From Phyllobates terribilis (lineage: Eukaryota), in NCBI RefSeq assembly GCF_046119375.1, contig NW_027362771.1:459358001-459422000 (forward strand): a DNA stretch of 64,000 bases. The letters are read 5' to 3'. The notes below the pieces were generated by a model that was given only the letters and a program-made list of their open reading frames with translations, searched no databases and was not told the origin of the DNA. Made by a program: the position numbers and the translations under genes. Below are positions 40,004-63,949 of this stretch, one piece after another (within the stretch, counting starts at the first letter, position 1; the number at the start of each line of letters is the position of its first letter).

Positions 40004-41502
40004 CCACTGCTACCACTCAGGTTGTATCTTATAGCCTACCTTCATATGCATTTTTGGTATTCCTTACCTGAATATTGCTTCAGACTATTATTATATCTGT
40101 TAAATACTAAAATATATGTGCACTATTAAAATGGCACTCTTTTGCATAAAGCACTTTATAATGAATTTGCACTGTGGCACTTTATAAATAATTTGTGATT
40201 TCTGAAAAAGAATTCTCTTCATAGATATAAGCTTACAGTATATGATATTTGATATGCGTTTGTTTCCCATTTGGGATGTAATTTATTGCTCTACAAATAC
40301 AAGAATATAACGCTTATGGCCATAATGGGCATCCTTACTGTCTGAATGAGCTAATGCATATGTATATATATTACCATAGGACTCTGTCCTAGCTACTGTA
40401 AAAGCATACATATTTTTGAGCATCCTGAGTTGTGTAGTTATCTTTGCAGATGTTTTCCCCCATTTTTAGTGTTTTTATTACTATATGTGTTTTTGTATCA
40501 ATAAATATTTTTTTGGAATATATTAAGTGAGCTTAAGCCTCTCTTTCTTCATGAGGTTTCTTTGATGTATCTTGGAAGTGCCCCTGTACCTTGTTAAGTT
40601 GTTTCTTTTGGTTTATCTTATACTCACTGGCAGTTTCTGGTGGCGCACGTACAGCATGCTTTGTCACCCAGCTAAGATGGCAGGGGGTGTCACGGGGCAA
40701 TCATAGGCCAACATTGGCCAGTGATGATAGCTGGACAGAGGACAGAGCAGGCTTGGTGGCCACTTGGGGCTCTGAGAATCCTATTTAACCTATGTATATT
40801 GTTCACCTTGTCCCAGCGGTTTCATTTATATACTACCATCGTACCATTGGACTGGTATATTGGTGTTCTGATCTGGCACGTCCTTTAATCATTCTTTTGG
40901 ATTAACCCTGGATGCTCACTTTGGTTTAACCGGTTCCCGACCACCCACTGTACATAAACGTCGGTGCTGCCTGGGCTCTGTGCAGCGCCGATGTTTAAAA
41001 ACGGTGGGTGGTCCCGCAGCCCTCAGGACCCCCAGGGTCCTGCTAGCGCTGCGGTACCGGTTCAGAGCGATAGCTCTGACATGTGGCATCATGGGGACCT
41101 GATTGGATCAGGTCCCCATGATGTTAACCTGTTCCTATCTTCTAGATGCCGCGATCCATAGCGATCGCGGCATTTAAAAGATAGTGACAGCCGGTGGTCA
41201 GCGATCGGGACCCCCCACATACCTGCCAGTGGCGGGGATCCCGGTGCTGTGACCTCTGACATCATCGAGACCTGATTGGCTCAGGTCTCGATGATGTCAG
41301 CGTCACACCAGCCAATCAGAGAGATCACCAGGGAAGTTTGTTTTAGCAACAAACTTTCCCGGGCGATCTGCCTGATAAATACATTGTTTCTCCTCCGATC
41401 TCAGTGAGAGAGCAGAGGAGAAACACTGTGACAAGAGCTGTCAGCCTTGCCACAGTAAAAGTGAAAAAAATAAAATAAAAAAGAAAGTAAGAGTTAGGGT
41501 TA

Positions 41503-41842
41503 GTCAGTCCTGTCAGATCAGTCAGTCAGTCCTGTCAGATCTGTCAGTCAGTCCTGTCAGATCTGTCAGTCAGTCAGTCCTGTCAGATCTGTCAGTCAGT
41601 CCCGTCAGTCAGTCAGTCCTGTCAGATCAGTTCAGTCAGTCAGTCCTGTCAGATCAGTCAGTCCTGTCAGATCAGTCAGTCCTGTCAGTCAGTCAGTCCT
41701 GTCAGATCAGTCCAGTCAGTCGTGTCAGATCAGTCAGTCAGTCCTGTCAGATCAGTCCGGTCAGTCCAGTCCAGTCCGGTCAGTCCAGTCCGGTCCCGTC
41801 CTTTCAGTCCGGTCCGTTCAGTCCGGTCCGTTCAGTCCAGTC
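41503..41842. repeat. (GTCA)n-based compound microsatellite upstream of the transposase
   Basis: GTCAGTCCTGTCAGATC-type repeats ending just before the ATG at 41861. Confidence 0.9.
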
Positions 41843-41860
41843 AAAAAATATAAAAATAAA

Positions 41861-43666
41861 ATGGCCCGTCAGACTTATACCGCAGAAGAGGTGTATGCCC
41901 TGCTATGTTCTGACACTGATGACAGTGCAATCTCAGATGGAGATATGGATTTTGAGGGCTTTAGTAGCGGCGACACTGAGAGCTCAGAAATGAGCAGTGA
42001 TTCTGTTCCATCCTCAAGCCCAAGGACCAGTACAGCAATAGGGGCAAATAGCGCTACTGGAGAATCGTCTCCAAATCAGGGAACACTGCCCAGTACAAGC
42101 GCTGTCCCTGCTACTAGTGAATTGGCGCACGCCAGTGTACAAGGGGCATTGCCACATGATCTAGCATTTCCCAGATGGGAGGCTTCGGATTCGGCTGCTC
42201 CATTCAGCCCTCATTTCAATGACACTCCTGGTATAAATGTGGAGGTGGAAGATTTTGGACCAATTCATTTTTTTAATTTGTTTTTTTACAGGCAGCTTGC
42301 TAGAGCATATTGTCGTGCAAACAAATTTATATGCATCCCAATTCATAAGCCAGAATCCCCGATCTTACTATGCTAGGGCAAATTTATGGACACCAACTAA
42401 TGTCCCAGAAATAAAAAAATTTTTAGGACTTACATTTGCCATGGGGCTTGTTAAAAAACCGAGCATTCGATCCTAATGGTCCAACCACCCTGTTCAAGCC
42501 ACCCCTATGTTTTCAGTCGTTCTGCCTAGGACCCGTTATGAAATGCTCATGCGGTTTTGGCATTTTAACGACAATAGTCAATGCCTGCCCAGAAATGCCC
42601 CAGAACATGACAGGTTATATAAAATTAGACCCATCATGAAAAATTCTTAAGCCTCTACACCCCAACACAAAATATTTCTATAGATGAGTCCCTTGTAAAA
42701 TTCAAAGGAAGACTGCACCTCAAACAATTTATCCCATCTAAAAGGGCAAGGTTTGGAATAAAGCTCTATAAAATGTGTGAAAGTTCAACCTTATACACAT
42801 CCGCTTTTTGCATATATGAGGGGAAAGATAGCCAACTAAACCCACCAGGATGCCCTACTTATCTGGGGACATCTGGAAAAATTGTTTGGGAGCTGATAAG
42901 TCCATTTTTTCAAAAAGGCTACAATCTATATGTGGACAATTATTACACCAGCATACCCCTATTTAAAAGTCTGGTTGAACACAACATCGGGGCTTGTGGG
43001 ACCATCCGTAAAAACCGTCAGGGGTTTCCACAACCATTGGTCAACCAATAGTTTCAAAAGGGGCAGTCAGGTGCTGTACGCAACGGAGAGCTGCTTGCCC
43101 TGAAATATAGGGATAAGAGGGATATTTTTGTCCTCAGCTCGATCCACACAGATGCCACAAGGGCCACTGTAGAACTAGGATCCACCACTCCGAAGCAAAA
43201 ACCTGTGTCAGTCATTGACTACAACAAACACATGGGGGGTGTGAACCTTGCAGACCAGGTTCTACAGCCATACCAGGTATCAAGAAAGTCCTATACCTGG
43301 TATAAAAAGTTGGTTATTTATTTGTTTCAGGTGGCCACATGCAATTCTTTTGTGTTGTACAAAAAAGCAGGAAATTCAGATCCTTTTCTTGATTATCAAG
43401 AAAAGGTAATTGAAAATTTTGTCTTTCAAAGTGTTAGCCCCGCTCATCCATTAGAATCTGAGGATGTGAAAAGACTCACTGAGCGACATTTTATTGCACT
43501 TATTCCAGCAACGAAAACAAGAAGGAACCCCCAGAAAAGATGTCGTGTATATACTAAGAGAGGAATGAGGCGTGATACCCGCTACTATTGCCCACAATGC
43601 CCATCATTGCCAGCCTTATGCGTCACTGACTGCTTTAAAATCTTCCACACAGAACCACGTTTTTAA
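41861..43666 (+). pseudogene. PGBD4-like piggyBac transposase pseudogene
   Basis: Acidic N-terminus; SIDESL, YVDNYYTS and YNKHMGGVNLAD motifs; C-terminal cysteine-rich domain (YYCPQCPSLPALCVTDCFKIFH). Frameshifts and stops present. Confidence 0.9.
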
Positions 43667-43870
43667 ACTGTAAAAATGTATCCCAATTTGTCATTCAAAC
43701 ATTTGGTTCATTTAGTGAATGACACCAGGGGGGGGTTCTCCAGAATCTAAACCTTCCATTGCGTGCTTGTTTCTGGAAATCATCCATTGAGTTAAAATGG
43801 TCACTAAACCCATAGATGAATTCCCAGAGGGGTGTCATTTCCAAAATGGGGTCACTTCAGGGGGGATTCT

Positions 43871-44086
43871 AATAGAATCATAGAATCATAGAATGGTAGA
43901 GTTGGAAGGGACCTCCTGGGTCATCTGGTCCAATCCCCTGCTCAAAGCAGGATTCACTAGATCATCTCAGACAGATGTCTGTCCAGCCTCTGTTTGAAGA
44001 CGTCCATTGAAGGGGAACTCACCACCTCTCGTGGCAGCCTGTTCCACTCATTAATCACCCTAACTGTCAAAAAGTTTTTTCTAATA
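43871..44086 (-). mobile_element. 5'-truncated CR1 LINE 3' end (second CR1 subfamily)
   Basis: RKNFLTVRVINEWNRLPREVVSSPSMDVFKQRLD ORF2 C-terminus; (ATTCTATG)n tail. Confidence 0.9.
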
Positions 44087-45856
44087 GATTCTTTAGCTCT
44101 GGTACTCTGAAAAGTGCCAGAACAGCATAATCCCCCCTGAAGTGACCCCATTATGGAAATGACACCTCTGTGGGAATTCATCTATGGGTTTAGTGACCAT
44201 TTACCTATCTACTTATTTTCCCACCACTAGATTAATTTATACAGAGGAGTAGATTGTAAAATTCGGTCACTTGTTGTGGGTTTTCTCTGTTTAGGCACCT
44301 CAGGGGCTCTCCAAATGCAACATGGCGTCCGCTGTCGATTCCAGTCAAATTTCCATTCCAAAAGTCAAATGGCGCTCCTTACCTTCCGAGCCATGCCGTG
44401 CGCCCAAACAGTGGTTTTGCACCACATATGGGGTATCAGCGTGCTCAGGAGAAATTGCACAACACATTTTGGGGTCCATTTTTTTTGGCTGCCCTTGTGA
44501 AAATTAAAAATTTGAGGCTAAAGTAGCAGTTTTGTGTTAAAAATGTGTTTTTTTATTTTCACACTTCAACATTATAAAATTCTGTGAAGCCCCTGGGGGT
44601 TCAAGGTGCTCACCACACATCTAGATAAGTTCCTTGAGGGGTCTAGTTTCCAAAATGGGGTGACTTGTTGGGGGTTTCCTCTGTTTAGGCACCTCAGGGG
44701 CTCTCCAAATGCAACATGGCGTCCGCTATCGATTCCAGTCAAATTTCCATTCCAAAAGTCAAATGGCGCTCCTTACCTTCCAAGCCATGCCGTGCGCCCA
44801 AACAGTGGCTTTGCACCACATATGGGGTATCAGCGTGCTCAGGAGAAATTGCACAACACATTTTGGGGTCCATTTTTTCTGGCTGCCCTTGTGAAAATTA
44901 AAAATTTGAGGTTAAAGTAGCAGTTTTGTGAAAAAAAGTTAAATGTTCATTGTTTTCTTCCACATTCCAAAAATTCCTGTGAAGCACCTGAAGGGTTAAT
45001 AAACTTCTTGAATGTGGTTTTGAGCACCTTGAGGGGTGCAGTTTTTAGAATGGCATCACTTTTGGGTATTTTCTGTCATAAAGGCTCCTCAAAGTCACTT
45101 CAAATAAGATGTGGTCCCTAAAAAAATGTTTTTGTAAATTTTGTTGTAAAAATGAGAAATCGCTGGTCAACTTTTAACCCTTATAGCTTCCTAACAAAAA
45201 AAATGTTGGTTCCAAAATTGTGCTGATGTGAAGTAGACATGTGGGAAATGTTATTTATTAACTATTTTGTGTGACATATCTCTCTGATTAAAGGGCATGA
45301 AAATTCAAAGTTTGAAAATTGCAAAATTTTCAAAATTTTCGCCAAATTTCCGATTTTTTCACAAATAAACGCAAGTGATATCGAAGAAATTTTACCACTA
45401 TCATGAAGTACAATATGTCACAAAAAAACAGTCTCAGAATCAAGGGGATCCGTTGAAGCGTTCCAGAGTAATTACCTCATAAAATGACAGTGGTCAGGAT
45501 TGAAAAAATTGGCCGGGTCACGAAGGCAAAAACAGGCTCTGGCGCAAAGTGGTTAACCCAGAACTAGGAAAGAGAAAGTGTCCCAGCCACCATTACCTAT
45601 TCCTCTGCTGTTCGCTGCTCGGATAACAGCTCTGCCATGATACGTGACTCAGAACTACTTGATTCTTTGGGCATCTGTTCTGCCTGAAATTTTGGATTCT
45701 GACCCAGTTATACTATAGCTGTCTGCATATTTGGATATCATTTTTTTTTCCCTTCATCGGACAGCAGTTGCTCCACAGATTCAATCCGGGAGTCCTTGCA
45801 GCAAAAAACAGATCCTTGTATAAGTGATAAAGGGTGAAAGCCATGGAGCTTTTTAA

Positions 45857-47760
45857 CCCTAGAACGCATACCTGGGGCCTCGCATGCCTGCTAGGTTACT
45901 TGTTTTCTATTTTCTGCAAGATTACTTTAGTTAGAATTTTGAAACTCTAGGTATTCCTCAGGTATATAGTTGTTAGTAATTTCTAGTTGTTCATATATTT
46001 TTATGCTGTAGGCATTTCGGTAAAACAACTCTTTTTTGGGACTACCCCATATTCACATACCTGGGGCCTTTTAGGCCTGTACTTGGTTTACATGTGATTC
46101 TCAGTCTTTTTGTCTGTACTGTTACTTAGAAGGAAACCATATCTCTTCAGGAAGAAAAAAAACATGGAAAAATATAACAAAAGAGGAACTATATGGTTAT
46201 ATTGCCCTTACTCTTCTAGCAGGATGTACAAAATTGTACGCTGTTCCAATCAGAGAATTATTTCTGAACCCTTTTTCAGATCCACACTACAAAGCCACAA
46301 TGTCAGTCAATAGATTTGAGAATATTTGGAGAAGCCTTCGTTTTGATGATAAGAGAACTCGTCCTGTGAGGTTGGAAACAGATAAATTAGCCCCTATTAG
46401 CTACATCTGGAATCTTTTCATCAAAAGCTGTACAAAGCTTTACCATTCTAATGACAATGTGACAGTGGATGAGCAACTTCTTGCCTTTAGGGGACGTTGC
46501 AAATTCATTCAGTATATGCCCAGTAAACCTGCCAAGTATGGCATAAAATTTTTCTGGATGTGTGATTCTACAAGCTATTATGGCATGAATGGCCTGATTT
46601 ACTGTGGCAAAGAAGCTGATGCTCCAGTCCAGAAAGACCTATCTTCTGACAAAAAACTTGCAGTACCAATTTTCAATTCTGGAAAAATATAACAATGGAC
46701 AACTGCTTTACCAATCTGGAACTGGGCAAATTTTTGCTTCAGAAAAAACTGACACTTGTTGGTACTATGAGGCCAAACCGCCGCAAAATTCCTCCAATCA
46801 TGAAGCACAATCCCAAGCGACCACTTTATGAGAGTGTCTTTGGTTTCTGCAATCAATCGACAATGGTATCTTATAAAGCAAAGAAAGAAAATCCGTGATA
46901 TTACTGAGTACAATGCATCATGATGGAAGTATTGACACCGATGACAGGAAACAGAAACTTGAAATCATATTGCATTATAATAAAAAAAAAGGAGGTGTGG
47001 ACAAGATGGATGAAATGATTGGAGAGTATTTGTGCAAGAGGCAGACAAAACGTTAGCCTGTAGTCATTTTTTATAATATCCTTGATGTGTCAGCCCTCAA
47101 TAGCTATATTGTTTATAGTGAAACTAATTCAGAATTCCATGCCAACAGGAAGGACAAGAGACGTCTATTCTTGACGGAACTTTGCTATGAACTTTTGATG
47201 CCTACCATGATGGAGCGAAGCAACGTGAAATGCTTGCCAAGGCAAATTACGGAAGCTATGATCCGATGTGGTATACATTTTCAGGAACATCCAGAGCCGA
47301 GAGAAAAAAAAGAAAGCGCTCTTATATTTGTCCAGCAAAGAAGGAAAGGAAATCTGAGGGATTCTGTACTACTTGTGGACAAAATGTCTGCAAGGAACAT
47401 TCTTCCGAAAAAATAATATGTGAAAATTGTTGGGGTAATCAGTAAAGTTGAAAAGGAAAGTTTTTGAAAAGAAACATTCCTGCACCATGTTTACTACAAC
47501 TTTTATATAATAAACTTTTAGACAAAAAAATCGTTATATATATATATAAAGAATTATATAGAATGCATATATTGGGCGTTTTAAGCCGGTGTAATTATTT
47601 TTTTTGTTTTATGCACATAATTATAATGTTTTGAAATATTCACATCTCAAATAAACTTTGAAAAGTATTTCTATTTGAGTTACTCCATGTTATTTGCACA
47701 CAGGCCTAAAAGGCCCCAGGTATGTGAAAGTGTAGATTTCTATGGTTGCGCATTCTAGGG
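45857..47760 (+). mobile_element. Canonical-type piggyBac transposon (1904 bp), decayed
   Basis: TTAA on both sides. TIR CCCTAGAA(C/T)GC. Internal repeat CATACCTGGGGCCT at both ends with asymmetric spacers, plus a third copy at ~46055. Confidence 0.92.
46234..47445 (+). pseudogene. piggyBac transposase pseudogene
   Basis: VTVDEQLLAFRGRC...KPAKYGIK; DNCFT...VGTMRPNR; YNKKKGGVDKMD; C-terminal CTTCGQNVCKEH. Several frameshifts. Confidence 0.9.
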
Positions 47761-49314: not shown

Positions 49315-49730
49315 ATTAGAGGCATCTCTGTGACTTATGGCACATCTCACTGGATGAGTATAACAATCTCCTATTTATTTCCTATATTGTTTTACTGCTA
49401 TGTACTGTTAATCATCGATTTCCTAAATCATGTTGGATAGTAAGTGTTACAAGTTATCTAGCTATTTGAGCATGCTGCACTTTATCTGAATAATTAAATG
49501 TATATACCCGGATTTGGAAGGATAAAATACACTGGATACAGTGATATCCAGTAGCAGTATTTTAAGTGCCTGTTCGTATATCCATTTATCATTGTCTCAT
49601 CAAAGAGATTTCTAGGCATTATGCACTTTATCAAGCACTTTGCACTTTATATATCTATGTTGTAAATAAGTGTCAATTGTTGGAGATCTGAATCTGGTCC
49701 AGTGGGGTGAGACCTTTGTTATCATTGTTT

Positions 49731-50236
49731 GAAGCTTGAAGAGGACAATTTGCATATTCCAGGTGCCTTCTGGGAAAAGCGAAGAGTCTCCTTCAGCTAC
49801 AAGTTCGTTGGGTACAGCCGGGACCAGCTGCTTGGATAGCATCGCCAAACCAGGGATTGAAGCTTGAAGAGGACAATTTGCATATTCCAGGTGCCTTCTG
49901 GGAAAAGCGAAGAGTCTCCTTCAGCTACAAGATCGTTGGGTACAGCCGGGACCAGCTGCTTGGAAAGCATCGCCAAACCAGGGATTGAAGCTTGAAGAGG
50001 ACAATTTGCATATTCCAGGTGCCTTCTGGGAAAAGCGAAGAGTCTCCTTCAGCTACAAGATCGTTGGGTACAGCCGTGACCAGCTGCTTGGAAAGCATCG
50101 CCAAACCAGGGATTGAAGCTTGAAGAGGACAATTTGCATATTCCAGGTGCCTTCTGGGAAAAGCGAAGAGTCTCCTTCAGCTACAAGATCGTTGGGTACA
50201 GCCGTGACCAGCTGCTTGGAAAGCATCGCCAAACCG
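49731..50236 (+). repeat. Four tandem 128-bp monomers at the CR1 5' end
   Basis: Units start at 49731, 49859, 49987 and 50115; each contains ATTTGCAT and TTCTGGGAA. Confidence 0.95.
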
Positions 50237-50319: not shown

Positions 50320-51279
50320 ATGGCAGATGTGACAACCTACATGGTGAGCTGCAACATGTGCTACATGTTCACAGATCGACCAGAAGCTGAAACCAACTTC
50401 ACCTGCCAGAAGTGTAGACTACTGGCTCTTTTAGAAGAAAAGGTGCGGGGACTGGAAGAAAGAATTGCGACATTAAAACTCATCAAGGAAAATGAAGACT
50501 TCCTGGACAGAACAGAAGCGTCACTACTGGTCACGGAAAGTCAAGGAAGCATCAGAGAACCTCCAGAGGCAGACAAGTGGAGGCAAGTGACCAAAAGAAG
50601 CAAGAAGACCATGGAGACACCACCAACCACACAACTGAGAAACAGATTCCAAGGACTTGTGGAGGACGAAGATGGCACACCTAAGGATGAGGAACTACCA
50701 GCAAGCAAAAAAGAAAAGAGCACCCAAAAACACCCAGAAGCGACAAGAAAAAGGACAGCCAAGAAGGGAAGAAGAGTGGTGGTGGTGGGAGACTCACTAC
50801 TGAGAGGAACAGAAGCAGCTATCTGCAGACCGGACATAACCGCAAGAGAAGTATGCTGCCTCCCAGGGGCGAAGATCAAGGATGTTACCGATAGGATACC
50901 GAAGCTCATCAGTTCCAAGGATGTCCACCCATTTCTTCTGATACATGTTGGCACCAATGACACGGCAAAGAAGGACCTACCGACAATCTGCAAGGACTTT
51001 GAAGCATTGGGGAAGAAAGTAAAAGAACTGGATGCACAGGTAGTTTTTTCTTCTATCCTTCCAGTAGACGGGCATGGCGTCAGGAGATGGAACAGGATCC
51101 TTGATGTGAACAACTGGCTGAGACGATGGTGCAGACAACAAGGATTTGGATTCCTGGACCACGGTGTGAATTACCTCTATGACGGACTCCTTGCCAGAGA
51201 CGGACTACACCTCAACAAACCCGGGAAACACACATTCGTCAGGAGACTCGCAACACTCATCAGGAGGGCGTTAAACTAG
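50320..51279 (+). CDS. CR1 ORF1p: CX2C...CX2C zinc motif, coiled coil, SGNH/GDSL esterase domain
   Basis: CNMC...CQKC; LEEKVRGLEERIATL; VVGDSLLRG; HVGTND; DGLHL. Confidence 0.93.
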   Translation: MADVTTYMVSCNMCYMFTDRPEAETNFTCQKCRLLALLEEKVRGLEERIATLKLIKENEDFLDRTEASLLVTESQGSIREPPEADKWRQVTKRSKKTMETPPTTQLRNRFQGLVEDEDGTPKDEELPASKKEKSTQKHPEATRKRTAKKGRRVVVVGDSLLRGTEAAICRPDITAREVCCLPGAKIKDVTDRIPKLISSKDVHPFLLIHVGTNDTAKKDLPTICKDFEALGKKVKELDAQVVFSSILPVDGHGVRRWNRILDVNNWLRRWCRQQGFGFLDHGVNYLYDGLLARDGLHLNKPGKHTFVRRLATLIRRALN

Positions 51280-51290
51280 AAGAAGAGGGG

Positions 51291-54236
51291 ATGGGAAGAA
51301 AAACGCCGGACACGAACATGCAACCAGAGAACATACTAATGAAAAATATGAAGTGCGACAAAGAAGGTCCAAGACAAGATGCTTGGAAGGGAGGTAAGAA
51401 AATTTCTAATACAATCCACAGGGAGATGATTGGAACAAAACAAAATCGTGTAAACTGCATGCTAGCAAATGCCAGGAGCCTGACAAACAAGATGGATGAA
51501 CTGGAAGCAGAAATATCTACAGGTAACTATGACATAGTGGGAATAACCGAGACATGGTTAGATGAAAGCTATGACTGGGCAGTTAACTTACAGGGTTACA
51601 GTCTGTTTAGAAGGGATCGAAGAAGTCTGAAAGGGGGTGGAGTCTGTCTATATGTAAAGACGTGTCTAAAGCCTACAATACGGGAGGATGTATGGGAGGG
51701 AAATGAGAAGGTTGAGTCCTTATGGGTGGAGATACATGGGGCAAAAAACAATAATAAAATTATCATAGGAGTCTGTTATAAACCACCAAATATAGCAGAA
51801 GCCACGGAAAGTCTATTAATGAGACAAATAGACGAAGTAGCAAAAAATAACGAGGTGATTATTATGGGGGACTTCAACTACCCCGATAAAGACTGGGAAA
51901 CCGAAAGCTGTAGATCTCAGAAAGGAAACAGGTTTCTGTCAATTATCAAAGACAATTATTTATCACAACTTGTGCAGGAACCAACTAGAGGGACGGCCCT
52001 TTTAGACTTAATATTAACTAACAGGCCAGACAGAATAACTGAGGTGCAGGACGGGGGGCACCTGGGAAATAGTGACCACAACATTATACAATTCCACATG
52101 TGCTTCAGTAGGGTGCCCAGCAGGGGAGTCACAAAAACACTGAACTTCTGGAGGGCAAAGTTTGATCAGCTAAGAGATGCCCTTCACCTTATAGACTGGG
52201 ATAGTATCTTCAGTAATAGCAGCATGGATAGAAATTGGGAAATTTTCAAAACAGTCCTACATAGTCACTGTAGAAGGTACATACCTTATGGGAATAAAAG
52301 GGCTAGGAATAGGAGGAAGCCAATGTGGCTAAATAAGGAAGTCAAGAGGGCAATGAAAAACAAAAAAAGGGCTTTCGGTAAACTTAAACAAGAAGGCAGC
52401 GAGGAAGCGCTAATATCTTATAGGGAAAAAAACAAAATCTGTAAGAAACAAATAAGAATAGCAAAAGAGGAGACAGAGAGACTAATTGCCAAGGAAAGTA
52501 AAACGAATCCCAAACTGTTCTTTAACTATATAAACAGTAAAAGGATTAAAACTGATGGAGTTGGCCCATTGAAAAATAACCTGGGTAAAATCATAGAGGC
52601 CGATGAGGGTAAAGCAAACCTACTCAATAGCTTCTTCTCCACTGTTTTCACAAAAGAAAACAATTTATCGGAGGAAATGCAAAGTGATAAAGTAAACCCT
52701 CCGCTAAATATCACCCACCTAACCCAGGAGGAAGTTCAGAAACGCCTAAATAATATCAAAATAGACAAGTCACCAGGCCCAGATGACATACACCCCCGGG
52801 TACTAAAAGAATTAAGTAATGTGATAGACAGGCCGCTGTATCTTATATTCAAGCACTCTTTATGGACAGGGACTGTCCCACTAGACTGGCGCCAAGCAAA
52901 TGTGGTACCAATATTCAAAAAGGGGTCTAAAAGTGACCCTGGGAACTATAGACCAGTCAGCTTAACATCTGTTGTGGGTAAATTGTTTGAAGGATTTCTT
53001 AGAGATGCTATTGTAGAATATCTTAATGATAATAACTGTCTAACTCCATATCAACATGGATTCATGAGGGATGGCTCCTGCCAAACAAACCTGATCGCCT
53101 TCTACGAGGAGGTGAGCTCACAGCTGGACCGGGGAGAGTCAGTGGATGTTGTATACCTTGACTTCTCCAAAGCGTTTGATACTGTGCCACACAAAAGGTT
53201 GGTATATAAAATGAGAATGCTTGGTCTGGGGGATAATGTGTGCAAGTGGGTAAATAGCTGGCTGAGTGATAGAAAGCAGAGGGTGGTTATCAATGGAGTA
53301 AGCTCAGGGTGTGTCAGGGTTACTAGCGGGGTGCCTCAAGGGTCTGTCTTGGGCCCTATATTATTTAATATATTTATTAATGATCTAGTGGAAGGGTTGC
53401 ATAGTAAAATAGCAATATTTGCAGATGATACTAAACTTTGTAAAGTAGTTAATACAGATGAGGATAGGGCACAGCTACAGGAGGATTTAGATAAATTGGG
53501 GAGTTGGGCCAAAAAATGGCAAATGGGGTTCAATGCCGATAAATGTAAGGTCATGCACATGGGAAAGAAAAACAGCAGTCACCCATACATATTAAATGGG
53601 AAACCGTTGGGGAAATCTGACATGGAGAAGGACCTGGGCGTCTTGGTTAATAACCAATTAAATTGGAGTGCCCAGTGTCAGGCAGCAGCTGCGAAGGCAA
53701 ATAGAGTCATGGCATGCATCAGAAGAGGAATAGGGGCATATGATGAGAACATTGTTCTTCCTCTGTATAAAGCGCTGGTAAGGCCGCACTTAGAATATTG
53801 TGCACAGTTCTGGGCTCCGGTGCTCAGGAAAGACATATTGGAGCTAGAGAGGGTACAAAGGAGGGCGACTAAGGTAATAAAGGGAATGGAGGGACTAGAC
53901 TACCCAGAGAGGTTGGCAAAATTAGGCCTATTTACATTGGAAAAGAGAAGGCTTAGGGGAGACCTCATAAACATGTATAAATACATCAGGGGGCAGTACA
54001 GAGATCTCTCCCATGACCTGTTTATACCAAGGATGGTGACAAAGACGAGGGGGCACACTATGCGTCTGGAGGAAAGGAGGTTCCTGCACCAGCATAGAAG
54101 GGGATTCTTTACGGTCAGAGCCGTGAGACTCTGGAACTCTCTGGGAGAGGAAGTGGTGATGTCCAACTCACTTAATGAGTTCAAGAGAGGCCTGGACACC
54201 TTTCTTGAGAACAATAAAATTACATCTTATGCTTAG
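51291..54236 (+). CDS. CR1 ORF2p: APE endonuclease plus reverse transcriptase (981 aa)
   Basis: NARSL, GITETW, MGDFNYP, LDLILTN, SDH; FDTVPH, PQGSVLGP, FADD. Confidence 0.97.
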   Translation: MGRKTPDTNMQPENILMKNMKCDKEGPRQDAWKGGKKISNTIHREMIGTKQNRVNCMLANARSLTNKMDELEAEISTGNYDIVGITETWLDESYDWAVNLQGYSLFRRDRRSLKGGGVCLYVKTCLKPTIREDVWEGNEKVESLWVEIHGAKNNNKIIIGVCYKPPNIAEATESLLMRQIDEVAKNNEVIIMGDFNYPDKDWETESCRSQKGNRFLSIIKDNYLSQLVQEPTRGTALLDLILTNRPDRITEVQDGGHLGNSDHNIIQFHMCFSRVPSRGVTKTLNFWRAKFDQLRDALHLIDWDSIFSNSSMDRNWEIFKTVLHSHCRRYIPYGNKRARNRRKPMWLNKEVKRAMKNKKRAFGKLKQEGSEEALISYREKNKICKKQIRIAKEETERLIAKESKTNPKLFFNYINSKRIKTDGVGPLKNNLGKIIEADEGKANLLNSFFSTVFTKENNLSEEMQSDKVNPPLNITHLTQEEVQKRLNNIKIDKSPGPDDIHPRVLKELSNVIDRPLYLIFKHSLWTGTVPLDWRQANVVPIFKKGSKSDPGNYRPVSLTSVVGKLFEGFLRDAIVEYLNDNNCLTPYQHGFMRDGSCQTNLIAFYEEVSSQLDRGESVDVVYLDFSKAFDTVPHKRLVYKMRMLGLGDNVCKWVNSWLSDRKQRVVINGVSSGCVRVTSGVPQGSVLGPILFNIFINDLVEGLHSKIAIFADDTKLCKVVNTDEDRAQLQEDLDKLGSWAKKWQMGFNADKCKVMHMGKKNSSHPYILNGKPLGKSDMEKDLGVLVNNQLNWSAQCQAAAAKANRVMACIRRGIGAYDENIVLPLYKALVRPHLEYCAQFWAPVLRKDILELERVQRRATKVIKGMEGLDYPERLAKLGLFTLEKRRLRGDLINMYKYIRGQYRDLSHDLFIPRMVTKTRGHTMRLEERRFLHQHRRGFFTVRAVRLWNSLGEEVVMSNSLNEFKRGLDTFLENNKITSYA

Positions 54237-54801
54237 TTAATTAATCCAGGGATTTAATCTGACTGCCAGATTGGTGTCGGGTAGTGAATTTTTCCTCAAT
54301 GATGTAAATTGGCCTATACCGCATGGTATAGGAATAGCGGAATAGCTGCAGTGCACAAGAAATAGGCTGAACTGGATGGACGCTTGTCTTTTTTCGGCCT
54401 TATAAACTATGTAACTATGTAACTAGTCACAGGTGACAATATTGTTTTATCATTATGGCATTTTTCTGCTTGTTATTGTTATGCACACGCCCGGGCTAAG
54501 CGGCGTGTGCGTGTGATTGGTAGTGATTCCACTGGACCGTGCCGGAGAGTGAATGCCTGGAGGGGCGTGACTAAGTATTCACCCGATCCGACCAGGGTCG
54601 CACGACGGCATACGACGCCAGTGCACCAAGGAGGAACCGAGCAGAGGGACCAGGTGCTACTCCAGGACAGACCCCGGACACGGCTGTTGACCCACACAGG
54701 GGAATACAGGAACAGGCTGGTAGGCTGGCACACAGACTGGTGGGTATAGGCAGGCACGACTGGTATGCAGGCAGGCGGGTATGCAGGCAGGGGGGTAAAG
54801 A

Positions 54802-55041
54802 CAAGCACAGCTAGAGTGCAGACAGGGAGGCACTAGCAGGTAGGAACACAGGCGGGATAGGACCCAGTACACACCGGGACTCAGGAACAATACAGGCAGA
54901 GGGTTACAGGCAAGCACAGCTAGAGTGCAGACAGGGAGGCACTAGCAGGTAGGAACACAGGCGGGATAGGACCCAGTACACACCGGGACTCAGGAACAAT
55001 ACAGGCAGAGGGTTACAGGCAAGCACAGCTAGAGTGCAGAC
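54802..55041. repeat. 109-bp tandem repeat (2 copies plus partial) inside the LTR; also a 49-bp x3 repeat at 55445-55580; both mirrored in the other LTR
   Basis: Units start at 54802, 54911 and 55020; TCAGTTCAGACACGGG units at 55445, 55494 and 55543. Confidence 0.9.
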
Positions 55042-55667
55042 AAGGCTGAGCAGGGAGGACAGGGCTCTGTTCACACGGAACAGACAGGAAGGGAAAGACA
55101 GAGCCAGATACTCACACAGTACTTGCAGAGACAACAAGCAGGAGTTAGGTACGAGTTCAGACTCTGCAGAAAAAGGAAGGGAACGGACATAGAGGCAAAA
55201 CAGGTAAAGGACAGGAGAGAGTTCAGACTGGAACTGAGTGTACGGAGGAGACCGACACTGCAGAGGGATACAGGAGCGGGTCTGGGAATACGGCCCCCAG
55301 AGAGGCGGAACGAACAGGCAAGGAGCGTGTTCAGACAGGACAGACCAGACACAGGAGCGGGTCTAGGAAATCGGCCACTAGAAGGCGAGAGGAACAGGCT
55401 AGGAGCGTGTTCAGACAGGACAGACAAGAGAACACAGAAAGGAGTCAGTTCAGACACGGGAGCTGATACCGCAAAGCAGGAGACATACAGGACTCAGTTC
55501 AGACACGGGAGCTGATACCGCAAAGCAGGAGACATACAGGACTCAGTTCAGACACGGGAACTGATACAAAAAGCAGGAGACAAGAGACGGGACCTGGCAC
55601 CTTCAGAGTGCAAGCACACACTGAAGGAAACACTATGCTCAGGCCGGGATAGAAGGGAGCTGCTGAG

Positions 55668-57572
55668 CTATATACCAAGTGACAGACAGCAATAGGCTGA
55701 GGACGCACAAGGGGTGTGACCCACAGCAGGTACAAAAGGCAGGAAGTGATCGGGCGCCGCCCTTAAGCAGCAGAAACAGACACAAACAGACAGCATGGAG
55801 GGAAGCCAGAGAGACATTCTGGACAGGAGATCAAGTGCGCCCTCTTGCACAGTGGGAGATGGACCACCATGCAAGGACGCCGCCAGGTATGTTACAGTAC
55901 CTCCCCCCTTACGCCCCCTCTTCTTCAGGCCTGCCAGAATCTTCCGCAGGGAATTCGAGGACCAGTCGTTCACTGGGTTGGAGGGGGACAGAGACTTAAG
56001 GGTAATCTCTGCTTCGAGGTACATCTTGTCAAGCTCACAGGAAGAAATAGACGGGTTATCAGGTACATAATGAGAAAAAGTCACTGTCTCTTTGTTATCT
56101 GGTGGTATCCCGGAGGATTCAGGAAACAACTGGAGGTCCTCCGCCGGGTCAGAAGAGTGCAGAGGCTCAGAGAAAACAACTGCTTCAGAGTACACTAGGT
56201 CGGACTCACTGGAGGAAGCGGGCGAGGTATCGGGTACCGAGTATAGGAAAGTCTCTGTCCATTCACCACCAGGTGGCACCCCGAAGGGTTCTGGAGACAG
56301 CTGGCGGTCCTCCGCCTGGTCGGAGGGGTGTAGAGACTCAGGAGTAACCTCTGCTTCAGAGTACACTAGGTCGGACTCACTGGACGAAGCAAGCGAGGTA
56401 TCAGATCCAGGATATAGGAAAGTCTCTGTCCATTCACCACCAGGTGGCACCCCGAAGGATTCTGAACACAACTGGAGGTCCTCCGCCTGGTCGGAGGGGT
56501 GTAGAGACTCAGGAGTAACCTCTGCTTCGGAGTACACTAGGTTGGACTCACTGGACGAAGCGAGCGAGGTATCAGGTACAGAGTATAGGAGAGACTCTGT
56601 CCTTTCGCTACCAGGTAGCACCCCGAAGGGTTCAGGAGACAACTGGAGATCCTCCGCCTGGTCGGAGGGGTGTAGAGACTCGGAGGTAACTACCACTTTG
56701 GGGTACCCATTGTCAGGCTCACAGGACGAAGCGGACAAAGTATTGAGTACCGGGTGTAGAGAAGTCTCTCTCCATTTGTCATCGAGTGGTATCCCAGAGG
56801 GTTCAGGAGGCAACAGGGGATCCTCCGCCAGGTAGTAGAGGTGCACAGACTCTGAGGTAACCACAGCTTTGGAGCATCCTTGGACATGCACACCGGTTAA
56901 AGAGAAAGAAGCATCTGATGCCGGGTGCAGGAAGTTCTCCTGTGTGGAGTCTGGATGGGCAGAAGTCTCTTCGGCCAGGAGAACTGGTGCACTACCCACG
57001 CACATTACCCATTGGGGTTTCTCCGGGATACAGGGAGATGAAGCTTCAGTAGGGACTTCAAGGTTGGGGTCAGGAGGTCTCAGGGAGGACAGACCCTGGC
57101 GTGACGGCTTGCCTCTAAGTCTAGCACGTCTGGACTGCCTCTTGAGGTTGAGAGAAGTATTCCGGAAAGCGTAGTCACCCTGTGAGGATTCTGGGTGGGC
57201 AGTAGTCTCATTGGGCTGGAGGACTATTGCGCTACCCACACACATTACCCGTCGGGGCTGCTCCGGGATATTGGGAAGTGAAGCTTCAGCAGGGGCTTCC
57301 GGGTTAGGATCATCAAAGACCATTAGAAAGGCCACCAGGAAGGCCATTAGGTCCAGGAGGATCGGATCCTGTGTTTCATATAGGGGGTTGATCCATTCCA
57401 AGGCATCACCCGCCAGGTAAGACATAATAAAGGCCACTTTAGCCCAATCGGAAGGAAAATAGAGAGGGTAGGCCTTAAAGTGTAGCATGCATTGCTCCAC
57501 AAATGCACGACACTGTCTTGGATCCCCATAGTAACGTGGCGGATCCGCAGGAACGAGAGCTGATAGATCCAT
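55668..57572 (-). CDS. 634-aa Gag-capsid (PEG10/RTL/LDOC1-like) plus acidic tandem-repeat protein
   Basis: PPRYYGDPRQCRAFVEQC...FPSDWAKVAFIMSYLAGDALEW...F...FDDP (sushi-ichi/Mart capsid N-domain). Five 57-aa repeats. Tail KKRGRKGGGTVT crosses the PPT; stop lies in the 3' LTR. Confidence 0.85.
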   Translation of the reverse strand: MDLSALVPADPPRYYGDPRQCRAFVEQCMLHFKAYPLYFPSDWAKVAFIMSYLAGDALEWINPLYETQDPILLDLMAFLVAFLMVFDDPNPEAPAEASLPNIPEQPRRVMCVGSAIVLQPNETTAHPESSQGDYAFRNTSLNLKRQSRRARLRGKPSRQGLSSLRPPDPNLEVPTEASSPCIPEKPQWVMCVGSAPVLLAEETSAHPDSTQENFLHPASDASFSLTGVHVQGCSKAVVTSESVHLYYLAEDPLLPPEPSGIPLDDKWRETSLHPVLNTLSASSCEPDNGYPKVVVTSESLHPSDQAEDLQLSPEPFGVLPGSERTESLLYSVPDTSLASSSESNLVYSEAEVTPESLHPSDQAEDLQLCSESFGVPPGGEWTETFLYPGSDTSLASSSESDLVYSEAEVTPESLHPSDQAEDRQLSPEPFGVPPGGEWTETFLYSVPDTSPASSSESDLVYSEAVVFSEPLHSSDPAEDLQLFPESSGIPPDNKETVTFSHYVPDNPSISSCELDKMYLEAEITLKSLSPSNPVNDWSSNSLRKILAGLKKRGRKGGGTVTYLAASLHGGPSPTVQEGALDLLSRMSLWLPSMLSVCVCFCCLRAAPDHFLPFVPAVGHTPCASSAYCCLSLGI

Positions 57573-57700
57573 CTGGACGGTGCTTAATTCGCCTGGAACT
57601 CAGCTAAGGGAAAAAAAAAAAATTATTTATTTATTTTAATGCATGTATTCGCTGGAAAACTTCTCAGAGGGCGAAGGCCGTGGGGCTCAACGGGAACCAT

Positions 57701-57711
57701 GGCCTGAGCAT
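57701..57711 (-). other. Self-priming PBS (no tRNA complementarity recognised)
   Basis: ATGCTCAGGCC, 2 nt after the 5' LTR, is the exact reverse complement of GGCCTGAGCAT at 58875-58865. Confidence 0.8.
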
Positions 57712-58864
57712 GCTGTTATGCACACGCCCGGACTGACTGGCGTGTGCGGTTGTAGTGGTTCCACTGGACCATGAACCGGAGAGTGCCTGGAGGGGCGTAA
57801 CTAAGTATCTGGCCGATCCGACCAAGATGGCACGACGGCATACGACGCCAGTGCACCAGGGAGAAACCGGGCAGAGGGACCAGGTGCTACTCCAGGTCAA
57901 ACTCCGGACACGGGGGTTGACCCACACAGGGGAATACAGGAACAGGCTGGTAGGCTGGCACACAGACTGGTGGGTATAGGCAGGCACGACTGGTATGCAG
58001 GCAGGCGGGTATGCAGGCAGGGGGGTAAAGACAAGCACAGCTAGAGTGCAGACAGGGAGGCACTAGCAGGTAGGAACACAGGCGGGATAGGACCCAGTAC
58101 ACACCGGGACTCAGGAACAATACAGGCAGAGGGTTACAGGCAAGCACAGCTAGAGTGCAGACAGGGAGGCACTAGCAGGTAGGAACACAGGCGGGATAGG
58201 ACCCAGTACACACCGGGACTCAGGAACAATACAGGCAGAGGGTTACAGGCAAGCACAGCTAGAGTGCAGACAAGGCTGAGCAGGGAGGACAGGGCTCTGT
58301 TCACACGGAACAGACAGGAAGGGAAAGACAGAGCCAGATACTCACACAGTACTTGCAGAGACAACAAGCAGGAGTTAGGTACGAGTTCAGACTCTGCAGA
58401 AAAAGGAAGGGAACGGACATAGAGGCAAAACAGGTAAAGGACAGGAGAGAGTTCAGACTGGAACTGAGTGTACGGAGGAGACCGACACTGCAGAGGGATA
58501 CAGGAGCGGGTCTGGGAATACGGCCCCCAGAGAGGCGGAACGAACAGGCAAGGAGCGTGTTCAGACAGGACAGACCAGACACAGGAGCGGGTCTAGGAAA
58601 TCGGCCACTAGAAGGCGAGAGGAACAGGCTAGGAGCGTGTTCAGACAGGACAGACAAGAGAACACAGAAAGGAGTCAGTTCAGACACGGGAGCTGATACC
58701 GCAAAGCAGGAGACATACAGGACTCAGTTCAGACACGGGAGCTGATACCGCAAAGCAGGAGACATACAGGACTCAGTTCAGACACGGGAACTGATACAAA
58801 AAGCAGGAGACAAGAGACGGGACCTGGCACCTTCAGAGTGCAAGCACACACTGAAGGAAACACT

Positions 58865-58904
58865 ATGCTCAGGCCGTGATAGAAGGGAGCTGCTGAGCTA
58901 TATA
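58865..58904 (-). promoter_or_regulatory. LTR promoter: TATA box and predicted start site
   Basis: TATATA at 58904-58899; the self-primer sequence begins 29 nt downstream at 58875. Confidence 0.7.
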
Positions 58905-59524
58905 CCAAGTGACAGACAGCAATAGGCTGAGGACGCACAAGGGGTGTGACCCACAGCAGGTACAAAAGGCAGGAAGTGATCGGGCGCCGCCCTTAAGCAG
59001 CAGAAACAGACACAAACAGACAGCATGGAGGGAAGCCAGAGAGACATTCTGGACAGGAGATCAAGTGCGCCCTCTTGCACAGTGGGAGATGGACCACCAT
59101 GCAAGGACGCCGCCAGGTATGTTACAGTTATAACACCTACACTTTCCCTTGAACGTTGAGATATACCTATGTATTAGTTGAGAGGCGTCTTGATAGATTC
59201 ATCTTATTTAGGGATAGAAAGGGACTTTAGGGCTAGCCGCCGAGGAGCGGGGGAGCCACTATGTTCCCCCTAGGGTGCCAACCTCCGCTTCTAGGAACGG
59301 TAAGTTTAGTTACAGTCTAGGATATCAGTGAGGCCTATATATGACAATCAGGTTTGGTTTTATCATTTTTTTTTCTGTGTGTTGTTTGTTTTTGTGCTTC
59401 ACTTTTTTCGGTCAAGGTGGTCTTGACATTTTAGTAAATCAATAAAAGGTTTTATTTAAGGTCTTTATATGATTTATGTAGCTATTGTGACCTTTGATAC
59501 ATTATATTTTCCAAATATAAAGAA

Positions 59525-59805
59525 TAGTGTTGAGCGAGTATGTTCTGTCCGAGTATGCTCAGGCCGAGCTCCGAGTATTTATAGCTGCTCGGTGATATGG
59601 TTGAATCGCTCCCGTGTGCATGATTTGCAGCTGTTTGACAGTTTTATTACATGTGAGGAATGTGTAAGAAATAGACATTCCTCACATGTTGCAAATCATG
59701 CACACGAGAGCGATTCAACCATATCACCGAGCAGCTATAAATACTCGGAGCTCGGCCCGAGCATACTCGGCGAAAGGGTTAATAGAACATACTTGCTCAA
59801 CACTA
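59525..59805. mobile_element. hAT-type MITE
   Basis: TIR TAGTGTTGAGC / GCTCAACACTA; perfect 8-bp TSD ATAAAGAA. Confidence 0.9.
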
Positions 59806-62199
59806 ATAAAGAAGCAATGGGTTAATAACAATCTGTGAAAATATTATCCTTTTTTGGTGCAGTTACAGGTTTATTTACCCTGTACAGGGTTACAGGCAGT
59901 GTTACAGTATAGAGATAGAACACAATTCTGTTTGACATGAATAAGGCATAACCTACCGAAACATGTAGGCCAGTTCAGTGGTTGCTGTATTTTTTACACC
60001 TTTTTTTTAACCAAAATGGAATAAACATTAATGAATAACTGTCATTTTTTTCATAAATCAATAGTAAACATGAAAATAAGAAACTTTGTTATGTATATTA
60101 TTAGAGAAATCTCCCTCTTTGTCCTCCTTGACTGATTTTTAATTCTCAAAATTCTCAGTTTATGGGTGAAATCTGGCTTCAGTGAATACAGTTTTTCTCA
60201 TTATGAAGATAGAATATGACAGTTGATGCTAAAGTTATGAGAACTGTAACTGTCGTTTCAGGAGAACAAGCAGCTAAATATCTGTGTCTGCCTCTAGCTC
60301 CGACCTTCTCCACAGAATTTTAATTTTTAAAAGCACAAACTGTCATGTCCTATCTCTGTAATGGGAAAGTCTGTATTCATTAAATACAGATTTTTACAGA
60401 TATTACACAAGTTTATCTGATAAGATATATTACAAAGTTGGTTATTTTCACGTGCAAAAATATTGATTATGGAATAAAAATTAAAACGATAGTTACTCTT
60501 TAAGTCTTATAGGATTGTCTCTGCATTGCAGGACTCTTTCTAAGTTTGGGGTTGAAAAGGCTGCGGATCAAGGCAGATGTCTGTGCAAGCGGTCAGTAGT
60601 ACGCAAGACAATAGCGGTGACCTGACTTTTGGCAAATGTATTATAAATCACAATGGACAAGCCAGAGATGTGTGTGGAGGTTAACAGTAATTGCACATTA
60701 TAGAATATGATGATACAAGAAGATATCTGGCTGTGTAGAGTCAGCACTGGCATCCCAACTGCAGCAGTACACTATAGCTATAGAAGACATTAGAGAGGCA
60801 GAAGATGTGTGGTTTTCTATCAACAGCTGCAGTGCAATCAGCCACACAGTATAGAATATCCTTTGAAACATATTTTGTTGACTTGCTGCTTTCTAGTACA
60901 TGAAGAATTAAATAAATACTGCCAAAAACTGCTAAACCTGTCTAAATATGTGTGTTGTGTAATGTAGGTGCAATAAAATACTCATTGATTGTCATAGTCT
61001 TTGGTTTCCAGCCGTGCTAGTTCTCTTCTCACTCACATGAATGAAATTCCAACTTGCCGAATTACACTAGAATTTATGTGTGAGCACTTTTGCAATATAA
61101 GTCTATGGAGTTTCAAAATGAGACTCCATAGGTTTGCATTGTAAAAGCAACTTACAGCTCACACATTAATCGCAGTCAGGTCCGTGAGTCAGAATTTCAG
61201 TCACGTAAGTGAGAAGATTAACAGAGAGGTGCTGGTGCAGCGCACAGTTTATGATTTGATTTATGCAGATTGGCCAAAAAATATAAAAAAAATGGATAGC
61301 GCATTTCAAACACTGCTGAAGAATCACATAGCGGGCTAATGGCATCAGGCGTGGCCAGGCAGGCTTTCCATAATGCCCTGTAGCTATCACATCACATAGT
61401 CTAGCACAGCCAATTGGGGGGACTATCACAGCCTTTATAAAAGATGGGGGCCGGCCAAGCAGCGCCATTTTATACTTTTACAGTGTAGCTCATTTCATAT
61501 AGTGTAATGCAGCGGCTTGCGGCATTACAGTAATGGTCCAGGATGTGTTTTGGCAGACCATGTACCTCCCCCAGGTGACTGGTCACATGACTGTGACATC
61601 GCACAGGTCCTGTGCACACAGAAGGTATGATCACATGACTGTGACATCAGCACAGATCCTGTGTGTGCACTAGAGGATAGATAAACCCTGATAGTTTGGA
61701 GCCAGGGTGTGAAAGGCGTGAGGCCTGTTCACTGTGTGGGACACCGTTAGAGTGTGAGGCCTAGTGAGGCCTAGTGAAGCCTGGTGAAGCCTGAAAGGCA
61801 GAGGCTGGATCCTTATGTGTAAGCGATGCCAGTAGCCTTTGAAGGTACGAGGGCTGGAGACCCCAATCTGGGAAGCCGTAAAGCCACAGCTGTGGCAGAA
61901 CAAACCTGAAGCAGATAAAACCTGGCAAAGGTAAAAACACTGATTGATGTGGATATTTATATTGTTACCTTGCTGAAGGCTGTATCTGGAGCCAAGTGGA
62001 CATATCTGCCACTGGAAAGGCTCTTGGACATTATATGTGTAATATGTTGGCGAGCCACTGAGATGGACTCGGTTATAAGCAGTTATGAAGAGTAATAAAC
62101 TGCTGGATTGTGAAATACTGGAAAACATGGCTGGTGTGCTTTAATTGACCCGGTGACGCGAGTGTCCCCCCAGTATGATGACTAGCGCTGCCTTACATG

Positions 62200-62517: not shown

Positions 62518-63217
62518 ATGGCTGTGAACGGAGCAGCAAAAGAACATGAAGCTATTGAGCGATTAAAGTGCCAGTTAAAACCGCAGCAGGTATTTGAGAA
62601 ACGTCTACAGGACATGGTGCAGGAACAGCAGGAGCTGTGGTCACCGTATGGAATGGCAGCAGTGAACCATTCTGTGAACTCTCCGGGGGCGCCAGTATTG
62701 TCCCAGAGTGCCCGGGTCCTAAGACTATTGCTGATTTTTTTTGTAAAAATTCCCCTACTGGTGTGGTTGTTCAAAGGGGGCGGAGTCTAAAAAAGGGGCG
62801 GATTTCCACAAGAGCGTGGAGTATAGAAAACCAAAATTTGTTACTGGTTGTGGGTTGGTACCGCCTAAAAATGACAATTTGACCGTTGATAACGGGATAG
62901 CTCCAGTAGAAGGGGTTGACGTGAAGGTGGGAGGTGACTTGTTGGTCCACGAAACCATGGGGAGTGACACAGACCCCGTAGCTGACAGTGACACTACCAA
63001 AGTAGAACGAGAGTTCAGTCAGGAGGAGCTAGATGAGGAGAGAAAGTCCCCCTCTCGTCATCGACGGCGCAAGGGCCACAAAAAGGTTGCTCCTGTAGTC
63101 TTTGCTTCAAGTGAAAATAAAGAAAATGTAGTACTGTGTGCCTTTGTTTCAAGTGTGGATCCTCCTTTAGAGGCAGAAGAGGAGGTGATGTGGCCAGTAG
63201 CAACCTCCGGTACAGTA
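62518..63217 (+). pseudogene. Element-derived ORF N-terminal region (gag position), frameshifted
   Basis: ATG at 62518 after the leader. Three overlapping frames (62518, 62637, 62816) are linked by probable frameshifts in homopolymer runs. No motif recognised. Confidence 0.5.
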
Positions 63218-63949
63218 CTGAGACAGAAGGATCAGGATCTGACAGCCCTGAAAGAGGAGGTGGCCAGTCATGACCAAGAGCTGGAGCCTATCAGGCAGCA
63301 GTGTCAGAGTGATGTGCAGCAACTATGGGAAAACCTGGAGAACGTGTCCTCAGACCAGCGGCGCCTGGAGTCTGAACGGCAGAAAATATACCAGGTTGTG
63401 AGGAACTTACAGCGAGACCTGGAGGGAAGCAACGAGGAAATTAACCAATGGAAGGAAATGTTCCAGGAAATTAAAGAGGACCGCCGCAAAACCAAGGAGG
63501 AGGTTTTGCAGTTGAAGCTTGAGAAGGAGGCGTTGCAGGATGAAGTTTCTGGATGTGAGCAAAATCTAGAATGACTGCGCGAACAGTTCAACCGGGAGCT
63601 GTGTGAATCCAAGAAGAAATATGGTGAACGCAGTGGGGAACTGCAACAAATTAAGAGAGACTATGAGGATCTCCTCAGTGTTAAAGAAAAACTAGAGGAT
63701 GATAAGGCGGATGCAGAGCACATGTGCCAAGTGGTTGAGACCACTCTGCAGGACAACCGTGATGAAAATGATGATCTCCACAGAAAGACCCTAGGTCTGG
63801 AAGCTCAGGTGAAGGAGCTGCAGACGTTCTGTGATAATCACCAGAGGGCAGAGTTGTGCCTTAAGGAAAGAATCAGCAAGATGGAAGCTGAGCGGAAACA
63901 GATGGAGGAGTCTATCGGAGAAGCCACAGACCACGGCCAGGAGTTGGCC
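63218..63949 (+). pseudogene. cgn: Processed (intronless) cingulin coiled-coil rod fragment within the LTR element; one in-frame TGA at 63572-74
   Basis: [102 protein letters not shown]. These are colinear with vertebrate cingulin as recalled ([66 protein letters not shown]). Confidence 0.85.

Follow-up and report, generated by a model that had tools for sequence, protein, structure and literature searches.

The minus strand of the 64-kb stretch of DNA analysed here, which we call the window, carries a complete LTR element of 4650 bp (59126–54477), the interior of which is filled by a frame of 634 aa. The element is enclosed by a 5-bp target-site duplication, GTTAT, found on its left at 54472–54476 and on its right at 59127–59131. 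Both LTRs have TG...CA ends, and the 5' LTR (57714–59126, minus strand, 1413 bp), which contains internal tandem repeats of 49, 80, 109 and 16 bp in its R/U5 part, is 97.5% identical to the 3' LTR (54477–55896, minus strand, 1420 bp). The two LTRs differ in 34 columns, of which 33 are found in the last 210 bp at the U5 end and only one in the other ~1196 bp; judged by this single difference outside the U5 end, the insertion is young. The clustered differences occupy 54477–54685 in one copy and 57714–57915 in the other, and the two U5 ends may represent different variants that were brought together by a template switch between co-packaged RNAs or by conversion.

A TATA-like box, which we take for a putative promoter element, lies on the minus strand of the 5' LTR at 58898–58904 and has its copy in the 3' LTR at 55674–55668. 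About 23 nt below it, the predicted 5' end of the RNA would provide a self-primer of 11 nt (58865–58875, minus strand). The exact complement of 58875–58865 is present at 57701–57711, 2 nt below the 5' LTR on the same strand, where it forms a primer-binding site of the self-priming type, and in folding of the stretch 58880–57660 the two sites paired with each other over a distance of 1.16 kb, in the minimum-energy as well as the centroid fold. The Tf1/sushi group, known from fungi and vertebrates, is described as having self-priming among its features (PMC6317226) and, with the RNA start placed as above, the 11-nt complement would give the element this feature. A polypurine tract adjoins the 3' LTR (55897–55926, minus strand). 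No canonical poly(A) hexamer occurs on the minus strand of the 5' LTR, neither an Rfam match nor a tRNA gene was found, and neither RNase H nor integrase was detected in the element by the ORF list and Pfam. The element is almost certainly a non-autonomous LTR retrotransposon of the Tf1/sushi type. The LTRs, target duplication, primer site and polypurine tract thus bear out an earlier note on this DNA in its description of the frame as the sole long ORF of a mobile element.

The window is rich in other repeats, and this repeat landscape gives the impression of a vertebrate host, probably a frog. A CR1-type LINE (50320–54236, plus strand), which ends ~240 bp from the LTR element, has both frames open, ORF1 with a GDSL-esterase match and ORF2 encoding endonuclease-RT. 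A gypsy element at 17667–25522 (minus strand) has 1004-bp LTRs that are 99.6% identical, a PNMA-type Gag with a zinc knuckle, and a pol that is open through RT/RNase H and carries a stop in the integrase part; its Gag type and its unrelated LTRs rule it out as a helper of the element described above. A second non-autonomous LTR element, at 32076–35532 (minus strand, LTRs 99.3% identical), is a deletion derivative of the same gypsy family, with a short gag start running into an acidic end after ~130 codons. Transposase remnants of piggyBac type (DDE_Tnp_1_7) and Tc1 type (DDE_3) are found at 41500–46700 and 602–1087, respectively. Tandem arrays occur with periods of 57 bp (39393–40004, 10.7 copies without gaps), 394 bp (27346–29377 and 44227–45520) and 128 bp (49729–50235). 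A 205-aa frame at 62957–63574 (plus strand) has coiled-coil matches only; it may be where the gag of a further element starts, truncated by the window end. Neither the 64-kb window nor the protein libraries nor the metagenome and viral contigs searched yielded a helper element.

The frame and the protein it encodes

The 1905-nt open frame reported in the earlier note is real. It spans 57572–55668 on the minus strand and comprises 634 codons, with an in-frame stop 9 codons above its ATG; each of the five other frames over 55668–57572 contains 13–45 stops. The predicted protein of 634 aa has a mass of ~69 kDa and a pI of 4.4. Its only Pfam family is DUF4939, a Gag capsid segment matched at aa 11–86 (57315–57542, minus strand) with an E-value of 4.4e-7 and 30.2 bits against a cut-off of 29, and no Pfam family was matched in aa 91–634. 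The capsid domain of ~90 aa proposed earlier was therefore recovered in the profile search, in a shorter form of only ~76 residues. The Atlas clusters nearest to aa 1–100 are likewise DUF4939 / Retrotrans_gag (score 0.94), and a search of PDB sequences gave three matches at E ~0.5, among them Ty3 Gag, residues 34–100 of which align weakly with the capsid segment (E 0.5). The DUF4939 family includes proteins of the LDOC1/RTL8 type. The length of the match, the weak alignment to Ty3 Gag 34–100 and this family membership together suggest that the 76-residue segment is probably the capsid N-lobe only. A single-sequence structure model of the capsid part contains three helices at low confidence (pLDDT 44.5); with this model Foldseek gave no match at E 0.001, and the best VIA-align score (Z 5.4) was to unrelated helical proteins. 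The last helix of the N-lobe segment is unusually hydrophobic, with a 19-residue mean of 1.87 at aa 68–89. A motif scan of the whole protein found no zinc knuckle (CCHC), protease (D[ST]G) or RT (YxDD) motif, in agreement with what had been stated before.

Downstream of the capsid segment the protein is built largely of repeats. A doublet, with copies at 57179–57312 and 56939–57072 (minus strand), is 80% identical over 134 nt at a spacing of 240 nt (80 codons), so that the two copies of the motif seen earlier are confirmed. The main part is an array of five acidic Ser/Glu/Pro-rich units of 171 nt or 57 aa each (55971–56825, minus strand; aa 250–534), pairwise 64–89% identical and with no gap between neighbours. 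The five full units had been recognised previously, and to them must be added a degenerate partial sixth unit upstream, which extends up to ~56940, the 171-nt periodicity spanning ~aa 211–537 or ~5.7 units in all. The net charge over aa 241–530 is −47. No significant DNA match to the element interior was found elsewhere in the 64-kb window, hence the acidic array is not derived from the LTR.

The polypurine tract is itself translated, reading KKRGRKGGG in frame. The basic motif KKRGRKGGGTVT, which the earlier note took for a protein end typical of sushi pol, arises where the polypurine tract and the opening bases of the LTR are translated. It does not end the protein, since 75 more codons and the stop follow inside U3 of the 3' LTR (55668–55896, minus strand; open by chance with P ~0.17). 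Because the polypurine tract dictates this sequence, any likeness to a sushi pol terminus carries no weight as evidence. The stop codon is indeed supplied by the 3' LTR, being the TAG of TATATAG at 55674–55668.

Searches for relatives of the protein were blank. Protein searches found none for aa 90–560 (7998 candidates scored, and none in Atlas either), for aa 1–130 (126 candidates scored), for aa 1–95 against longer proteins (101 candidates scored) or for aa 91–559 against 1.84 billion representatives, and metagenome and viral contigs contained none. The capsid part, too, has no relative in these libraries, so they seem to be poor in such proteins, and the blanks are not evidence of novelty.

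Family variants and probable selection on the frame

The interior of the element, or part of it, is present in 20 of the 22 listed sequencing runs, which come from five studies and bear three organism labels. Four runs (X1, X11, X14 and X20) were mapped on 55897–60400, X1 being taken as DNA and X11 as RNA, in both cases by guess only. Run X1 placed 77,920 contigs on these 4504 bases, with a median depth of 26,000 for the frame, 52,000 for the LTR (a ratio of 2.0 between LTR and frame) and 6 in the five low flank bins. Depth is not copy number, and these values are read only to the effect that the family is highly repeated, mostly with two LTRs per interior. The same ratio amounts to 22, 56 and 67 in X11, X14 and X20, which are thus not plain genomic samples of this element family.

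The variants listed for these runs comprise 12 indels (10 more exist), 15 of 62 joints and 40 substitutions (208 more exist). None of the 12 listed indels falls inside the frame, which makes up 52% of the mapped element stretch; two are just above the ATG and ten in the LTR. Five of the six listed joints within the frame skip a multiple of three nucleotides, against none of seven in the LTR (Fisher P 0.005, with two of the six sharing one end). A 147-nt in-frame skip, 56799–56945, is seen in X11 and X20 and represents a length variant without the degenerate partial unit. Gaps of unknown length interrupt the frame in eight of 32 listed pieces, four of these eight, all of low depth, belonging to X1, where such contigs may be single decayed copies.

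The tail amino-acid sequence is almost free, and selection very probably acts on the frame and not on the tail sequence. The five units differ by at least 110 changes, spread over the codon positions as 38/36/36 with no stop and no gap; divergence without a stop or frameshift had been observed in the earlier note. The dN/dS among them ranges from 0.38 to 1.07 (10 pairs) and is 0.84 for the doublet, so that the value near 1 named in that note as speaking against selection was largely reached, and zero-fold sites of the five units change at 0.79 of the four-fold rate. The family differences tell the same story: the 25 listed in the frame are divided into 8 silent, 17 replacement and 0 stop changes, as compared with a neutral 30/67/3% (P 0.47). 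The lack of stops among these 25 is uninformative, with 0.7 expected. For the N-lobe segment three family variants are listed, two of them silent, from which no selection on it is apparent.

The open state of the frame is a different matter. With 2.3–3.0% of changes making a stop, 96–120 changes would leave none with a probability of 0.03–0.11. As an indel control we used nine chosen non-coding paralogous pairs in the window, with 26 frameshifting indels per 458 substitutions. At this rate the probability of no frameshifting gap in 110 changes is 0.002, and jointly with the lack of stops 1e-4, or ~3e-3 (by hand arithmetic) if only two satellite pairs (7 per 252) serve as the control. The control is uneven, given that the non-coding 57-bp array of the window has accumulated 49 substitutions and no gap, which demonstrates that arrays can diverge without indels. 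Outside the array, the 183 codons were open in 0.1% of 4000 Markov simulations, a figure that is overstated because part of this stretch is a duplicate. Taken together, the frame is very probably under selection. The earlier proposal of selection thus stands as regards the frame, which is open beyond chance and tends to be kept by the family variants, and fails as regards the repeat protein's sequence. Since this young copy has units that differ by up to 36%, its frame must have remained open in a long succession of transposing ancestors, which would point to selection on the element's own spread.

The leader of 1304 nt above the frame contains eight upstream ATGs, with uORFs of 2–41 codons, and sites that may allow splicing. 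The only GT[AG]AG of the 1.3-kb leader is a candidate donor at 58337–58348 (minus strand; intron start 58345), and its hexamer also occurs at 58356 in X1, X14 and X20, in loose ends of diverged LTR relatives that cannot otherwise be aligned. The candidate acceptor, 12 T followed by CCCTTAG at 57604–57622 (minus strand), is 31 nt above the ATG and is the most T-rich of the three acceptor-like sites that passed the scan. Splicing from 58345 to 57604 would remove the primer site and five of the eight upstream ATGs and would yield a trans-acting protein; no such joint is among the 15 of 62 listed, though reads break at the T-run. In a contig of X11, 55972 is connected in frame with 56612, so that 639 nt (56611–55973) with GT..AG ends on the minus strand are omitted; this joint, known from a single contig and with a weak donor, would remove most of the acidic array.

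Possible roles of the frame

We tentatively favour, at a strength that falls a little short of even, the reading that the frame serves its own RNA by an N-lobe tether to a helper Gag combined with translation through a spacer. The element would borrow Gag and Pol from an autonomous relative. Its RNA would start below the TATA box of the 5' LTR, and the first 11 nt would pair with the site below the LTR to give tRNA-free priming; the plus strand would be primed by the polypurine tract, and the 5-bp duplication would be made by the helper integrase. In the transposing lineage one frame has been kept open from just below the primer site to the end of U3, the tail drifting almost neutrally, as the statistics show. 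The capsid N-lobe of the nascent protein may then dock, N-lobe to N-lobe, on the helper Gag and so draw the element RNA to assembling particles, and the acidic array would act as a disordered spacer, the letters of which are nearly irrelevant and which may keep the ribosome running to near the 3' end of the RNA, so that decay is avoided.

Having no C-lobe match and no zinc knuckle, the protein cannot build a shell alone, and without the zinc knuckle any tethering of the RNA would have to be co-translational. The single steps have precedents. The fusion protein of the mouse IAP 1-delta-1 element is reported to aid transposition in cis, with Gag and Pol supplied in trans (PMC6466679, PMC7411935), RTL8 is reported to bind the N-lobe of PEG10 and to enter its particles (PMC11684626), and in Ty1 hydrophobic parts of the nascent Gag are described as routing the translating RNA to assembly sites (PMC4974528). 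The hydrophobic last helix of the N-lobe segment may be set beside this Ty1 routing as a lead only. The same Ty1 source describes mini-Ty1 elements without functional genes that are still mobile with a helper (PMC4974528), so that mobility does not generally require an open frame. Co-assembly with helper particles, as suggested in the earlier note, is plausible by analogy to RTL8, and the restriction factor offered there as another option would fit poorly with a frame kept in a helper-dependent lineage.

An explanation at the RNA level only is possible but doubtful. According to it the frame remains open to escape nonsense-mediated decay, which would be invited by a premature stop with over 1.5 kb of RNA left untranslated behind it, and the protein with its N-lobe is a by-product. 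This would agree with neutral amino-acid change in the absence of stops, with the extension of the frame to ~23 nt before the inferred R boundary and with the tolerance of in-frame length variants such as the 147-nt skip. It is less easily reconciled with the N-lobe, which still scores above the DUF4939 cut-off though the units below it differ by up to 36%, a hint of constraint; moreover, the openness of the U3 part can be due to chance at the probability given above, and the 5' LTR minus strand lacks the canonical hexamer that would place the poly(A) site.

It is unlikely, though worth stating, that a vertebrate sushi-type parasite has evolved an RTL8/LDOC1-like half-capsid with a disordered tail for its own spread, made from a spliced RNA with the acceptor just above the ATG. 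If this were true, mobile elements would acquire the N-lobe truncation and a ready splice acceptor prior to any domestication, and hosts would capture a pre-made capsid modulator. Of similarly low likelihood is a trans modulator, in which RNA spliced from 58345 to 57604 yields a half-capsid with an acidic tail that tunes or disturbs helper particles, or performs a service to the host. A protein translated from such an RNA, which lacks the primer site, would act in trans and weaken the argument for action in cis. The candidate donor is kept in the diverged LTR relatives and the acceptor above the ATG is strong, RTL8 provides a precedent (PMC11684626), mammalian half-capsid genes are reported to bear variable disordered extensions (PMC11011659) and, for the host-serving form, the mobile gag-only Bhikhari is reported to be needed in zebrafish development (PMC12067270). 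Against these points stand the missing joint and the lack of sequence constraint on the tail; besides, an inhibitor of the helper would be disfavoured in a helper-dependent lineage, and a trans product of a many-copy family would be only weakly selected per copy. That no selection acts at all, the frame being a deleted gag remnant in which a unit open by chance was duplicated and amplified from few source copies, is improbable: one 57-codon unit is open by chance in 8–13% of cases, dN/dS is neutral, the window was chosen for its open frame and a gap-free non-coding array exists in it, but the joint probability for the array (1e-4 to 3e-3), the value of 0.001, albeit overstated, for the codons outside it and the in-frame bias of the family variants all argue against this.

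Comparison with known systems

Gag-only LTR elements are already known, and the combination of a mobile half-capsid with a neutrally drifting acidic array appears to be the new part. Our search of the literature, which was made without repeat databases or most subscription papers, brought up no mobile N-lobe-only element that carries an acidic array, and such an element may already be present in the repeat databases. The proposed tether to a helper Gag would place the element closest in principle to IAP 1-delta-1, as far as the published descriptions of the latter go. Both would need Gag and Pol in trans and keep one open frame; the mouse element, however, has a retrovirus-derived gag-pol fusion, whereas here a Ty3/gypsy half-capsid is joined to a repeat array and the action in cis would follow by inference.

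The TR-GAG elements of plants are described as non-autonomous LTR elements that have gag as their single ORF and show signs of activity (PMC4350172). Our element may work in a similar way, but it falls outside the group: TR-GAGs are reported from plants, are shorter than 4 kb and encode a Gag precursor, whereas this element is from an animal, is 4.65 kb long and retains only ~76 recognisable Gag residues, with no C-lobe or zinc-knuckle match. Frogs, too, have LTR elements without pol, namely 1a11, xretpos and lambda-olt 2-1 of Xenopus (PMC4585706). The Gag-like protein of 1a11 is given as 71 kDa as against 69 kDa here, a comparison made by description only; tens of ORF copies are reported there, and the descriptions at hand mention neither a self-priming site nor an acidic array. 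Young, mobile, gag-only elements are represented by zebrafish Bhikhari-1/-2 and chicken ENS-1/ERNI (PMC12067270; PMC11512509). ERNI is described as having a disordered C-terminal region, like the tail here (PMC12067270), but Bhikhari and ENS-1 are retroviral, with full Gag or capsid folds, and are reported with demonstrated expression and a developmental role, whereas our element is known from its sequence.

With sushi-ichi and Amn-san, Tf1/sushi V-clade chromoviruses by published account, the element shares the self-priming site, the DUF4939-type Gag and the TG...CA LTRs; pol is absent from it, so there is no RT phylogeny to compare. Among the LTR types of a frog genome, the sushi-related Amn-san is reported to be the most abundant (PMC4131045), which makes helpers plausible.

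The RTL8 and LDOC1 genes of the RTL/SIRH group are described as having the same N-lobe-only capsid with variable disordered extensions (PMC11684626, PMC11011659). They are fixed host genes conserved across mammals, in contrast to what we describe here, a mobile element that is intact, is present in many copies and has a tail that drifts neutrally. The element is not a domesticated RTL/SIRH/Mart gene, given its near-identical LTRs, target duplication, many copies and near-neutral tail, nor is it well described as the snapshot of a pre-domestication state that the earlier note had offered as a possibility, being a recent insertion that belongs to a many-copy family and retains both LTRs as well as the target duplication. 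It provides a natural many-copy case for the question why elements without pol keep an open frame, be it for a tether in cis, for RNA stability or for a modulator in trans, and its copies are numerous enough to weigh retention of the frame against constraint on the sequence branch by branch. The truncation of the mammalian half-capsids has been placed by the authors concerned soon after the birth of these genes (PMC11011659), and the element described here bears on whether the N-lobe-only capsids of domesticated mammalian genes can originate in elements that are still mobile.
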